Shown here: positions 418 through 3,779 of the stretch, one piece after another
Numbering within the stretch: the first letter of the stretch is position 1
Layout of the letters: the number at the start of each line of letters is the position of its first letter
Virus record (IMG/VR): IMGVR_UViG_2734482586_000007
Reading direction: 5' to 3' (one strand)
Length of the DNA: 4,567 nucleotides
Origin: a virus
Taxonomy: Duplodnaviria; Heunggongvirae; Uroviricota; Caudoviricetes
Notes under the pieces: generated by a model
Seen by the model: only the letters and a program-made list of their open reading frames with translations
What the model was told of the DNA's origin: nothing
Database searches by the model: none
Translations under genes and position numbers: made by a program

Positions 418-705
418 TCAATCCTGCTCAAGATTGTAGATGAGTTTATTCTTCAGCAAAAGCAGAAAACCAGCCTTAAAACCAATCTCTTTCAAAACCC
501 GTAATGATGTGACAAATTCGTCCTCACGCAAAATAAAACCGTCCGTCAGAAGTCCATTACAAAAATAAAATAACACAGCACCGCTCTTCCTTTGTTGAGA
601 TTGCAAACATCTAATGCGGCAATGGCTGACAATCGCTCCATTCTCAACGCGCACAGCATAGAGGCCATTTTCACTAAAAATTTCACGCAATTCTTCGATT
701 TTCAT
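418..705 (-). CDS. hypothetical 95-aa protein, AT-rich moron-like ORF of unknown function
   Basis: Minus-strand ORF with ATG at 705-703 and GGAAGG about 9 nt upstream; stop TGA at 420-418. Visibly AT-richer than neighbouring genes (not computed). Lies directly downstream of a terminator and a promoter-like element. No family recognised. Confidence 0.55.
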   Translation of the reverse strand: MKIEELREIFSENGLYAVRVENGAIVSHCRIRCLQSQQRKSGAVLFYFCNGLLTDGFILREDEFVTSLRVLKEIGFKAGFLLLLKNKLIYNLEQD

Positions 706-786
706 CTTCAGAATCCTTCCAGATAAATAGCTCTCCCCTGTTCGGGGTCCATCCCTCTTCTCCCTGCGCGCTACTTAAGTGAGTCG

Positions 787-814
787 ATTCTATCTGCGAA
801 GGTGCGCGAATCAA
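787..814 (-). promoter_or_regulatory. putative sigma70-type promoter for the 95-aa ORF
   Basis: Minus strand reads TTGATT (plus 814-809), a 16-nt spacer, then TAGAAT (plus 792-787). It sits about 80 nt upstream of the ATG at 705 and immediately downstream of the terminator. Motif match by eye only. Confidence 0.3.
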
Positions 815-831
815 ATTCACCGGAAATAAAC

Positions 832-879
832 AACAAAAAACCCGCCGAAACGCTGAGAGATCACAGCGATGGGCGGGTT
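832..879 (-). terminator. rho-independent terminator (tR2-like position, at the replication/nin boundary)
   Basis: Plus 839-846 aacccgcc pairs with 872-879 ggcgggtt, with an inner 5-bp stem cgctg/cagcg (851-855 and 864-868). On the minus strand the stem is followed by TTTTGTTGTTTATTT (plus 838-824). Confidence 0.55.
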
Positions 880-967
880 AAGTGCGGGTGCGTTGAGGAT
901 GCCTGACACATCAGAGGTGGGCGGGGATGGGATCAGCTCCCCGCCCGGTCACTCTTACTTCCTGGAT

Positions 968-1231
968 NNNNNNNNNNNNNNNNNNNNNNNNNNNNNNNNN
1001 NNNNNNNNNNNNNNNNNNNNNNNNNNNNNNNNNNNNNNNNNNNNNNNNNNNNNNNNNNNNNNNNNNNNNNNNNNNNNNNNNNNNNNNNNNNNNNNNNNNN
1101 NNNNNNNNNNNNNNNNNNNNNNNNNNNNNNNNNNNNNNNNNNNNNNNNNNNNNNNNNNNNNNNNNNNNNNNNNNNNNNNNNNNNNNNNNNNNNNNNNNNN
1201 NNNNNNNNNNNNNNNNNNNNNNNNNNNNNNN
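968..1231. other. run of 264 N (masked or gap); content unknown
   Basis: Directly visible. ORF-track entries crossing it (869..1234, 911..1249, 927..1310, 933..1253) are artefacts of translating N. It lies between the queH-like stop (1315-1313) and the hairpin/terminator at 832-946, so it could hide one small minus-strand gene or an RNA. Confidence 0.95.
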
Positions 1232-1312
1232 TGAAGCAGATAGCCTCAAGCACCCGCAGTCATTCTACTTACCTCGCCAATATGAAATCAATCAGAAAGG
1301 TGCCCCATAAAA

Positions 1313-1999
1313 TCACTCCTTCTCTTCTTTACCGTAGTGGAGTTGACCAATTTTGATAAGAGGGCGTCCCTGAGATTTGCGGTGTAGATTGGTATCGCGC
1401 AGAGAATACACACAGCCACAATATTCCTGCTGATAGAATTTTTCGCGCTTGCTGATTTCAATCATACGGGACGAGCCGCCCTGCTTGCGCCAGTTATAAT
1501 CCCAGTACACCATGCCCGGATAATGCGCGACGGCTCGCCGCCCACAGTCGTTAACCTGCTGCATATTTTTCCAGCGTGAAATGCCCAGTGAACTGCTGAT
1601 CACACTGAAACCATTTTCAGCGGCGTACAGCGCTGTCCGCTCAAAACGCATGTCAAAACACATGGTGCAACGGATCCCTCGTTCGGGCTCCCATTCCATT
1701 CCTTTGGCTCGTTCAAACCAGTTGTCTGTGTCGTAATCAGCATCAATAAACGGCACGCCGTGTTGTTCAGCAAAGCGAATATTCTCATCCTTACGAATTA
1801 AATACTCTTTCTGAGGATGAATGTTCGGGTTGTAGAAAAAGATGGTGTAGTCGATTCCCGAGGCCTGAAGCGCCTCCATCACCTCACCGGAACATGGAGC
1901 ACAGCAAGAGTGCAGTAGTAGTTTGTTTGCCCCGTTTGGGAGCTCCAATTTGGGCCGTTTGAAATCAGCAACTGTCATAAATATGTTTATTGGGGTCAT
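1313..1999 (-). CDS. queH: QueH-like epoxyqueuosine reductase (DUF208 family), 228 aa
   Basis: Minus-strand ORF with ATG at 1999 (alternative ATG at 1978); no obvious Shine-Dalgarno for either. The translation carries cysteine-rich motifs I associate with DUF208/QueH: [33 protein letters not shown]. Stop TGA at 1315-1313. Confidence 0.75.
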
Positions 2000-2146
2000 A
2001 AAAATATCAAAGAGTGTAGCATTAGAACGGGGCTATCGGAAACAGATGTGTGACTGCTCCCCGCCCTTTCGGGTGGTCTCCTGATGATTTGAGGGTGCAG
2101 AAATCCCTCCGGTTAAGGATTAAATTTTTAACAGTGCTAAATTTAA

Positions 2147-2503
2147 TTATTCAGTTCTGGATTTTGTCGCCCTGCGTATCCGCGCTTTCGCGTTACGCTC
2201 AATCTGTATCAGCTTTTCTATATTTCTCCGCCTTTCCTGTTCCTCCTGGCGCAATAGCCTTACATCATCTGCCAGTCTGGTTTCTCTTTTTGCCACAGAG
2301 AGCATCCAGTCAAACGGCTCCACAACCGCACCGCAGATTTTACAGCGGACCTGACGCTCTTTTTCGTCAACCCGTACAGAGGCGTGATGGCAATATGGTC
2401 TTTCCGATGGCTCATAAAGAAAATTAACCTGATTACGAGGGTCATCCTCTTTTACCGGAAATAAAACGATATTGCTTAACTCATCTTCTGGTTTTATTTC
2501 CAT
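2147..2503 (-). CDS. hypothetical small protein with putative zinc-binding motif (C-H-H ... C-x2-C) and basic coiled-coil-like tail, 118 aa
   Basis: Minus-strand ORF. Preferred start is ATG at 2503-2501 with AAGGAGAGGAG 6 nt upstream. The ORF-track start at 2560 abuts the ren-like stop (TGAATG) but adds 19 residues rich in rare AGG/TTA codons. Motif: PYCHHASVRVDEKERQVRCKICGAVV. Stop TAA at 2149-2147. Confidence 0.6.
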   Translation of the reverse strand: MEIKPEDELSNIVLFPVKEDDPRNQVNFLYEPSERPYCHHASVRVDEKERQVRCKICGAVVEPFDWMLSVAKRETRLADDVRLLRQEEQERRRNIEKLIQIERNAKARIRRATKSRTE

Positions 2504-2560
2504 GCTCCTCTCCTTTGATGCGAATGCCAGCGGTAATTGAAGCCTGATAGCTAATTTCAT

Positions 2561-2983
2561 TCACAGTATCGCCTCCTGAAAATTACCCTGATAGAAAGCC
2601 AGTACACGCTGCATAGCTTCGCTCTTCCGGCACTCGCGACAGATTATATTCAGGCGCCTGTCGTAGCGGCGTATTTCTCCGTCAGGTAATGACCAGATAA
2701 GGTCCGGATCAACAACAACCGGTTTCCTCACCTTTACTCTCGAGAGTTTTTTGCGGGCGCTTTGCCAGTCCTTGCGAGCCTGTTCAGACGGGAATAAGCC
2801 GTAGCCAGAATTATATACATCACCACTTGCGACCAGTTCTATGCATAAGCGACCGACAGACGCACGACTGATACCTGTTTCATCTGACAACTGCCGAATC
2901 GTGACCCGACCGTCCTGATGCACGAGTTCCACAATTCGCGTCTTCAGTTCTTCCCGCTGTTCGGGAGTAAAAGGTTTCGCCAT
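2561..2983 (-). CDS. ren: Ren-like protein (homolog of phage lambda Ren), 140 aa
   Basis: ATG at 2983 with AGGAGG 4 nt upstream. C-terminal NIICRECRKSEAMQRVLAFYQG matches my recollection of lambda Ren (NLVFKECRQSAAMKRVLAVYG). The N-terminal half looks winged-helix-like. It sits immediately downstream of the helicase-loader gene, as ren follows P in lambda. Confidence 0.7.
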   Translation of the reverse strand: MAKPFTPEQREELKTRIVELVHQDGRVTIRQLSDETGISRASVGRLCIELVASGDVYNSGYGLFPSEQARKDWQSARKKLSRVKVRKPVVVDPDLIWSLPDGEIRRYDRRLNIICRECRKSEAMQRVLAFYQGNFQEAIL

Positions 2984-2997
2984 AAATCCTCCTGAAA

Positions 2998-3779
2998 CTA
3001 CTTAACAACCCTCGAATGGCTAACATTCGGACGCCAGCTCTCCCAGTTAAAATTCACCCAGCGCCNNNNNNNNNNNNNNNNNNNNNNNNNNNNNNNNNNN
3101 NNNNNNNNNNNNNNNNNNNNNNNNNNNNNNNNNNNNNNNNNNNNNNNNNNNNNNNNNNNNNNNNNNNNNNNNNNNNNNNNNNNNNNNNNNNNNNNNNNNN
3201 NNNNNNNNNNNNNNNNNNNNNNNNNNNNNNNNNNNNNNNNNNNNNNNNNNNNNNNNNNNNNNNNNNNNNNNNNNNNNNNNNNNNNNNNNNNNNNNNNNNN
3301 NNNNNNNNNNNNNNNNNNNNNNNNNNNNNNNNNNNNNNNNNNNNNNNNNNNNNNNNNNNNNNNNNNNNNNNNNNNNNNNNNNNNNNNNNNNNNNNNNNNN
3401 NNNNNNNNNNNNNNNNGATAGCTGCCGCTAAGTGATTCTTCCCGGTACCAGGTTTTCCGCTGAACGCAAAATTTGTACACCCGGTCATCAGTTCATCGGC
3501 GATGGATTTCGCCTGGCTTAACGCGTATCGCTGGCCGTCGTTCTGCACCTGGTAATTCGCAAACGAGCATTTACGGTGCAACGGCTGGATGCCTGAGCGA
3601 TTCAGAATTTTTTCCACCCGCAACTGGCGATTCAGGCGGTTGATCTCCTCGCTACGTTTCTGGCCTTCAGCAAGTTGCCACTCGCGCCACTCCGCTACCG
3701 TTCTGAATGGGGCGGTTACATGTGGCGGGGTCAGTCGGCGGATGCGTTCCAGAACGCCGCCTGTCGCAATATTTTTCAT
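2998..3779 (-). CDS. DnaC-family replicative helicase loader (AAA+), interrupted by the N run; the N-terminal and C-terminal parts are in different frames as given
   Basis: N-terminal part (3779 to 3417): MKNIATGG...FANYQVQNDGQRYALSQAK...FAFSGKPGTGKNHLAAAI closely resembles E. coli DnaC through the Walker A motif. C-terminal part (3065 to 2998, another frame): RWVNFNWESWRPNVSHSRVVK resembles the DnaC tail (LWVIFNWDSYRSRV) and stops at TAG 3000-2998, just before the ren RBS. The span 3779-2998 is 782 nt, which is not a multiple of 3. Confidence 0.8.
3066..3416. other. run of 351 N (masked or gap) inside the DnaC-like gene
   Basis: Directly visible. It hides the central AAA+ region (Walker B, sensor motifs). 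ORF-track entry 3016..3435 on the plus strand is an N-translation artefact. Confidence 0.95.

Follow-up and report, generated by a model that had tools for sequence, protein, structure and literature searches.

What do two small neighbouring genes, lodged between the helicase-loader gene and the nin-type genes of a lambdoid prophage, encode, and do they belong together? The question is raised by a stretch of 4,567 nucleotides (nt) from a virus of the Caudoviricetes (IMG/VR record IMGVR_UViG_2734482586_000007), referred to below as the window, in which every gene lies on the minus strand. An open reading frame (ORF) of 140 amino acids (aa; positions 2561-2983) is followed there by one of 118 aa (2147-2503). 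A first-pass annotation had read them as a Ren-like gene and a zinc-ribbon-like gene sharing an accessory slot. Coordinates are those of the whole window and residue numbers those of the 140-aa or the 118-aa product. The closest reference, a prophage of E. coli FDAARGOS_944, is 99.8% identical across 1,834 bases around the two genes and is Rac-like and lambdoid according to its RefSeq annotation. We identify the 140-aa protein as a DUF977 (YdaW-family) protein and remote homologue of lambda Ren, and the 118-aa protein as a member of the phrog_1621 family with a predicted zinc ribbon and coiled coil. On balance we lean towards the reading that a Rac-like lambdoid prophage carries here two delayed-early accessory genes, each separate from the other, to which we assign inferred roles and an inferred common operon; our confidence is high in the anatomical part of this reading (identities and domains) and low in its mechanistic part.

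The 140-aa protein (residues 1-136) matches the Pfam model PF06163 of DUF977 over model positions 1-134 of 134 (E 1.1e-33, 116.5 bits for a cutoff of 22.1), and an identical protein is held in RefSeq as a 'DUF977 family protein' (WP_001118169.1). It also matches phrog_142, a family named 'Ren-like exclusion protein' (E 2.7e-44, model positions 1-115 of 116). The C-terminus reads ...NIICRECRKSEAMQRVLAFYQGNFQEAIL, and the resemblance to the lambda Ren C-terminus that had been noted in the first-pass annotation was borne out by BLASTP against the 96-aa lambda Ren sequence taken from NC_001416: NIICRECRKSEAMQRVLAFY pairs with NLVFKECRQSAAMKRVLAVY, 12 of 20 residues being identical (E 3e-7). The relation is remote, since pairwise BLASTP finds these C-terminal 20 residues only; the PF06163 model itself gives no match to lambda Ren. 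Profile-profile comparison of DUF977 and Ren-family alignments with hhalign reached a probability of 95.7% (E 9e-9) over Ren residues 7-93. In the joint alignment an N-terminal helix-turn-helix region is common to both families, as is a C-terminal motif at residues 112-131 (2591-2650) in which N112, I114, E117, C118, S121, M124, R126 and L128 are invariant. This constant motif, N-[IL]-I-x2-E-C-[RK]-x-S-x2-M-x-R-[VI]-L, is short and helical. By these alignments the protein is a true but remote Ren homologue. The term 'Ren-like' is therefore sound as to homology and as to position behind the loader gene, but not as to membership of Ren proper, which misses PF06163; DUF977/YdaW family is the accurate label. 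In some phage records PF06163 proteins are labelled 'LygF', which appears to be a Salmonella locus name without a function attached.

The N-terminal part of the DUF977 protein (about residues 1-85; 2729-2983) is predicted to be a domain of the winged helix-turn-helix (wHTH) type. HTH_24, IclR and MarR models match residues 11-54, and the AlphaFold2 model has predicted local distance difference test (pLDDT) scores of 85-92 at residues 11-80 and 78 at residues 1-10, residues 88-112 being of low confidence. The wHTH domains of IclR, GntR, MarR and MntR stood at the top of a Foldseek search with this model (probability about 1.0, E 6e-3). Comparison of 38 distinct DUF977 alleles from IMG/VR loci showed that residues 1-50 are the most variable part, about 50% identical to the window protein, and that the Ren motif (residues 111-133) is the best-conserved segment, at 78-100% identity. 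DNA similarity to phage 640R1 breaks off within the gene near 2843, a mosaic joint. The allele pattern suggests domain swapping of the DNA-recognition part. We propose that an allele-specific wHTH lets the DUF977 protein bind DNA, that the constant C-terminal motif would contact a common partner, and that the protein may have a Ren-like role in escape from abortive-infection systems. Toothman and Herskowitz reportedly found in 1980 that mutation of ren renders lambda sensitive to Rex exclusion. The sole functional lead that we found for the DUF977/YdaW family itself comes from an overexpression screen (preprint 10.1101/2020.06.22.160242), which lists the family's Rac remnant, ydaW, with the prophage 'blockers' of the retron-Sen2 RcaT toxin.

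The second gene starts at an ATG at 2503, where the minus strand reads CATCAAAGGAGAGGAGC-ATG; the DUF977 stop codon occupies 2561-2563. The spacer of 57 nt (2504-2560) with a strong Shine-Dalgarno sequence (AAGGAGAGGAG) is thus as first described. This start is backed by the Shine-Dalgarno sequence, by an identical RefSeq gene (WP_001343130.1, 'hypothetical protein') and by homologues whose first methionine corresponds to it. A second ATG in the same frame, at 2560, which abuts the DUF977 stop (TGAATG, 2558-2563), would yield a 137-aa form that is annotated in some records and adds a hydrophobic MKLAIRLQLPLAFA... extension. We rejected it as the main form: beyond E. coli the extension is not kept, and other genera start at M1 of the 118-aa form.

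The 118-aa protein matches phrog_1621 (E 3e-56, model positions 1-120 of 134). When its gene was compared with copies from Klebsiella, Serratia, Yersinia, Salmonella, Erwinia and an unassigned element, whose products are 47-72% identical, synonymous differences were saturated (proportion of differing synonymous sites, pS, 0.8-1.0) and non-synonymous differences were low, lowest in the tail (pN 0.09-0.22). The segment NIEKLIQIERNAKARIR is nearly invariant across genera, and synonymous sites are saturated there too. Such substitutions mark the ORF as a real gene on which purifying selection acts strongly. Its family is large: a first search returned 148 relatives, and a representative library of 1.84 billion proteins contains 1,610 clusters (50% identity) at E<=1e-3 and 263 at E<=1e-10, some members having a composition like that of high-G+C Gram-positive proteins. 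One member adjoins a phage integrase in a Solirubrobacterales metagenome-assembled genome (MAG), and a genome scan with a sub-alignment of the family gave 12 loci, mostly in Enterobacterales. Two odd contexts were seen. A 3-kb scaffold of a 'Collinsella sp.' MAG (L107, scaffold_1667) carries an E. coli-type run of DUF977, DUF4406, further genes and the zinc-ribbon gene, and is probably E. coli prophage contamination of the bin. At two Salmonella loci (L093/L094, 1416-4354) a 120-aa DUF977 gene is found about 2.2 kb upstream of the zinc-ribbon gene, no genes being called in the interval, and P2-type Phage_GPA replication genes lie downstream of it, an unusual hybrid context.

Database searches agree with the first description of this protein as uncharacterised and zinc-ribbon-like. 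A set of 33 diverse relatives all match phrog_1621, phrog_8538 and phrog_4865, which PHROG labels as of unknown function, and every phage record of the gene reads 'hypothetical protein'. For the 118-aa protein and these relatives, Pfam, NCBIfam and PADLOC returned only a sub-threshold match to the TFIIB zinc ribbon and coiled-coil noise. The window protein has no PADLOC match; its relatives weakly match SMC-like coiled-coil models (LmuB, JetC), which we read as composition noise. A profile search of the PDB gave a match to EzrA (E 3.9), set aside as a chance match between coiled coils. A literature search by accession and PHROG identifier returned nothing on the protein, and a paper modelling exo-xis proteins does not describe it.

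The 118-aa product holds C38-H39-H40 ... C54-K-I-C57 and an arginine-rich tail, RLLRQEEQERRRNIEKLIQIERNAKARIRR, so both the C-H-H...C-x2-C motif and the basic, heptad-like tail noticed earlier are present. Among 33 homologues from about ten genera (alignment A1), C38, H40, C54 and C57 are invariant and H39 is variable; across the broader family (alignment A4), the three cysteines C38, C54 and C57 never vary and 97% of sequences keep H40. The predicted zinc ligands are C38-x-H40 ... C54-x2-C57 (2333-2392). The AlphaFold2 model (mean pLDDT 75) places beta strands at residues 43-46 and 51-54 (two short hairpins in 43-54). With four conserved ligands, two knuckles and beta hairpins, the protein conforms to the generic zinc-ribbon pattern and is predicted to bind zinc. 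Its best Foldseek match is the N-terminal domain of TFIIB (1pft, E 0.46, probability 0.63), in a part of the model with pLDDT 61-77. A single long helix follows (residues 63-117; 2153-2317), modelled with pLDDT 91-95 at residues 81-110. It has a heptad pattern, with hydrophobic residues falling at the a/d positions (L84, E88, L/R91, I95, L98, E102, A105, I109, A112), and its end (residues 84-110; 2174-2254) is basic and near-invariant; residues 83-118 have an isoelectric point (pI) of 11.5. Throughout the broader family, L98, E102, N104, K106 and R108 are each found in 88-97% of sequences. These features agree with an oligomeric coiled coil that has a basic end. A bZIP-like or arginine-rich RNA-binding motif was also considered for the tail and rejected, because the spacing misses the bZIP signature; it serves at most as a loose analogy. 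The acidic N-terminal third (pI 4.3), which bears a conserved E-L-x-N-V-V-x-F-P motif, is probably disordered.

On this basis we tentatively favour, with low confidence, an oligomeric early protein that binds nucleic acid or host machinery. The 118-aa protein would oligomerise through its coiled coil, and its zinc ribbon, together with the surface formed by the invariant E102, N104, K106 and R108, would bind a nucleic acid or a host machine that is widely conserved, during early lytic growth. The protein might instead act alone as an inhibitor of a host factor or of a defence protein, with the coiled-coil end as the interface and the acidic N-terminus as a mimic or decoy. That N-terminus, the occurrence of this small early gene in both early-left and early-right accessory regions, among accessory and anti-restriction genes (Lar, Ea22-like, HNH, DUF4406, DUF551), and the conservation of helix residues 94-110 on every face within Enterobacterales, as for a buried interface, all speak for such an inhibitor. 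We nevertheless think it unlikely. Conservation of the zinc ligands and of the E-x-N-x-K-x-R motif in the helix reaches far beyond Enterobacterales, which is unusual for an inhibitor of one lineage-specific defence system, and the PDB, BFVD, Pfam and PHROGs yielded no similarity to known anti-defence proteins. So widely held a helix motif argues for a widely conserved ligand rather than for one lineage-specific defence protein. A bolder version of the favoured reading would make the 118-aa family a new class of host-takeover factor acting on one universally conserved nucleic-acid structure or host machine, such as one serving replication or transcription, and would separately make the DUF977/Ren superfamily general anti-abortive-infection factors with a swappable wHTH and a constant effector motif; this we regard as a long shot.

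Whether the two genes form a unit was addressed by their linkage. One rival reading makes the Ren-like and zinc-ribbon genes a two-gene counter-defence module, whose products would act together against Rex-type, retron-type or other abortive infection, and part of the linkage speaks for it. DUF977 lies upstream of the 118-aa gene in 62 of 80 IMG/VR loci with near-identical copies of the latter, and about 40 of these 62 have a tblastn gap of 61 nt, the value for copies identical to the window's 57-nt-spacer arrangement, even with DUF977 alleles that are 55-80% identical in some. A junction probe (201 nt, window 2460-2660, matched over at least 80% of its length) was found in 969 of 5,426 complete E. 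coli genomes. The reported Rex sensitivity of lambda ren mutants and the place of ydaW among the RcaT blockers also point that way. The same genomes hold the conserved part of DUF977 in 3,498 cases (64%) and the 118-aa gene in 1,679 (31%, with up to 5 copies per genome), so that the junction is missing from about 72% of DUF977 genomes and about 42% of zinc-ribbon genomes. At other IMG/VR loci the two are split by DUF4406 and Ead/Ea22-like genes, and downstream of the 118-aa gene QueH is found in 12 of 80 and elsewhere homologues of ArgO145 gp14-16, DUF4014, HNH or DUF551. E. coli 042 has ydaV, DUF1627 and DUF977 followed directly by QueH, the 118-aa gene being absent.

Nor does the zinc-ribbon gene need a DUF977 neighbour. 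In Stx phage ArgO145 it belongs to the early-left region, where its start is overlapped by an Ea22-like gene's end (gp18; locus L005, 4381-5415). In Klebsiella, Serratia, Yersinia and Erwinia prophages it stands directly upstream of the Q antiterminator gene, its start overlapping by four bases the stop of a preceding YbcO, RusA or NinH gene, and one further element has it between Lar and DUF1367. The homology block of the gene spans about 2103-2532. Fusions of the 118-aa protein with Ea22, DUF977, DUF1133, DUF1627 or DUF4406 were discarded as clues: they are single-member clusters, probably frameshift or assembly chimeras. There is no anti-defence annotation, and no PADLOC match beyond the coiled-coil noise. 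We consider a two-gene module improbable: the zinc-ribbon gene is not tied to the Ren-like gene, and the first-pass suggestion that it might be a further counter-defence factor finds no direct support. The accessory slot between loader and nin genes that it described does stand: among related prophages the 118-aa gene is often kept behind DUF977, its neighbours vary, and the stretch is mosaic, carrying QueH and hok/sok as well. The distribution of the 118-aa gene is that of a mobile early-gene cassette with no dedicated partner in the Ren-like gene; by this comparison of loci the two are independent cassettes, and they are neighbours because the stretch is a recombination-shuffled cargo region.

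Ead/Ea22-like genes are very often the immediate upstream neighbours of the zinc-ribbon gene (for example at IMG/VR loci L032, L036, L040 and L041). The flanking genes of the ArgO145 early-left region (Ea22-like, gp14-16 homologues, HNH), together with DUF4406, DUF551 and DUF4014, follow the replication genes in Rac-like prophages. The zinc-ribbon protein could accordingly work with Ead/Ea22-like proteins in the lysis-lysogeny decision, like genes of the 'exo-xis region'. Ea22 is reported to favour lysogeny (PMC7093339, PMC10834534), and an Ead/Ea22-like gene (PF13935) lies immediately upstream in ArgO145, where the two overlap, and as clusters u6, u15 and u27 in many IMG/VR loci. The window, Klebsiella, Serratia, Yersinia and Erwinia have no adjacent Ea22-like gene, the Ea22-zinc-ribbon fusions are among the discarded single-member clusters, and the protein is missing from the paper that modelled the exo-xis proteins; we hold such a partnership to be very improbable. 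That the 118-aa ORF is a chance frame, or a conserved DNA or RNA element, as its lack of a Pfam family and its 'hypothetical protein' label everywhere might suggest, is refuted to a near certainty by synonymous saturation with few amino-acid changes even in the most conserved stretch, by homologues 45-70% identical that keep length, start and ligands across genera, by the strong Shine-Dalgarno sequence and by the lack of any Rfam match in the equivalent stretch of the reference locus.

The wider locus is that of a Rac-like prophage. In the reference (L001), Cro/CI-type regulators are followed by a YdaT-family protein, a 262-aa replication-initiator-like protein and ydaV, then by the DUF977 family protein, a hypothetical protein, QueH, hokD and a 95-aa hypothetical protein, and finally by DUF1367 (NinB-like), DUF1364, DUF1133, tRNAs and lysis genes. 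In the window, the partly masked ydaV gene for a DnaC/IstB-like helicase loader (2998-3779, placed from the RefSeq annotation of the reference and the ORF list) ends 14 nt before the DUF977 start. A consensus scan of the coding strand from 2000 to 3060 found no promoter- or terminator-like site. Since no such site separates them, we place the DUF977 and 118-aa genes on the ydaV early transcript; they probably share one rightward early operon with the replication genes (ydaU-like, ydaV).

Downstream, the predicted queH-like gene (1313-1999) was confirmed as QueH, an epoxyqueuosine reductase-like protein (PF02677, E 1.9e-65); it is a queuosine-pathway enzyme carried as prophage cargo. Of the two further elements that the first-pass annotation placed towards the nin boundary, the terminator was not recovered, a scan of the coding strand from 700 to 3060 showing no terminator-like site, and the masked 264 nt (968-1231) proved to be cargo, namely a type I toxin-antitoxin module of hokD toxin and sok antisense RNA (approximate coordinates 955-1255; RefSeq hokD; Rfam RF01794, 117 bits for a gathering score of 59, at 8699-9024 of the reference locus). 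The masked runs differ in length from the reference (264 vs 289 nt at hok/sok, 351 vs 316 nt inside ydaV). Between hok/sok and the DUF1367/NinB-like gene lies a 95-aa ORF (418-705) that belongs to phrog_340, labelled as of unknown function, and has no Pfam match; a promoter-like site (814-787, minus strand) stands directly upstream of it.

Several points weigh against the reading of two separate genes with the roles proposed here. Neither protein has a characterised homologue or an experiment backing an activity. Nucleic-acid binding by the 118-aa protein was deduced from its charge, its zinc ribbon and its breadth of conservation, and the all-round invariant helix would suit a protein-protein interface equally well. 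The zinc-ribbon assignment meets a PF08271 (Zn_Ribbon_TF) score below threshold (21.5 bits vs a cutoff of 29, E 1.7e-4), and 3 of the 33 family members match this model at E<=0.01. Foldseek matches of the 118-aa model in the PDB and BFVD are insignificant, nothing falling below E 0.26, and the N-terminal half of the model is of low confidence (pLDDT 56-68). The scan behind the operon was a crude consensus search. Lastly, the spacing from DUF977 to the 118-aa gene is fixed across alleles that are 55-100% identical, and this might stem from functional coupling instead of a recombination joint that the loci share.

Both genes are already catalogued in thousands of copies, under a DUF name or as 'hypothetical', and they are ordinary lambdoid accessory genes rather than a new system. 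Identical copies of the 140-aa and of the 118-aa protein are each found on some 1,000 public contigs or more, mainly from Shigella and E. coli, and the DUF977 and zinc-ribbon genes are among the commonest prophage genes of these bacteria. What is gained is a refinement, the recognition of DUF977 as a remote Ren homologue, and a modest target, a large unnamed zinc-ribbon/coiled-coil family. The DUF977-Ren link gives an abundant domain a concrete and testable lead, namely escape from abortive infection such as that by RexAB or retrons. The zinc-ribbon family, with no Pfam model, no solved structure and an unusually invariant helix, is a reasonable object for pull-down experiments or structure determination.

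Among known systems, the lambdoid Orf73/TraR-like and Ea8.5 proteins resemble the 118-aa protein in being small, zinc-binding (a prediction for the 118-aa protein) and encoded in early accessory regions, and in the early-left region some copies of the 118-aa gene have Ea22-like neighbours; neither sequence nor fold searches detected a similarity to these proteins. Proteins of the TraR/DksA type combine a C4 finger with helices entering the secondary channel of RNA polymerase, whereas the 118-aa protein has Cys-His-Cys-Cys ligands and the reverse domain order, the ribbon coming first and one long helix after it, and no Pfam match places it in the DksA/TraR type. With TFIIB- and CHC2-type ribbons it shares four ligands set in two knuckles that flank beta hairpins, TFIIB being the best weak match in both sequence and fold searches. 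DnaG-type primase zinc-binding domains use the same Cys-His-Cys-Cys ligand set, but the spacing of the 118-aa protein is C-x-H-x13-C-x2-C instead of the primase C-x2-H-x17-C-x2-C, there is no zf-CHC2 match, and the 55-residue coiled-coil helix predicted to follow the ribbon occurs in neither family. Like lambda Ren, the DUF977 protein is encoded right behind the replication-loader gene, on the same strand and ahead of the nin genes (lambda P overlaps ren, which ninB follows), and it shares with Ren an N-terminal wHTH-like domain, the C-terminal motif N-L/I-I/V-x-x-E-C-R-x-S-x-x-M-x-R-V-L and membership of phrog_142. It differs from Ren in being 44 residues longer, with an N-terminal extension and two insertions, and in being 22-30% identical overall to Ren-family sequences; protection from Rex is known for lambda Ren only. 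From DUF977/YdaW of the Rac prophage it shows no difference of substance: with its full-length model match and the Rac-type order of ydaS/T-like, ydaU-like, ydaV and DUF977 genes, the window protein is a member of that family.

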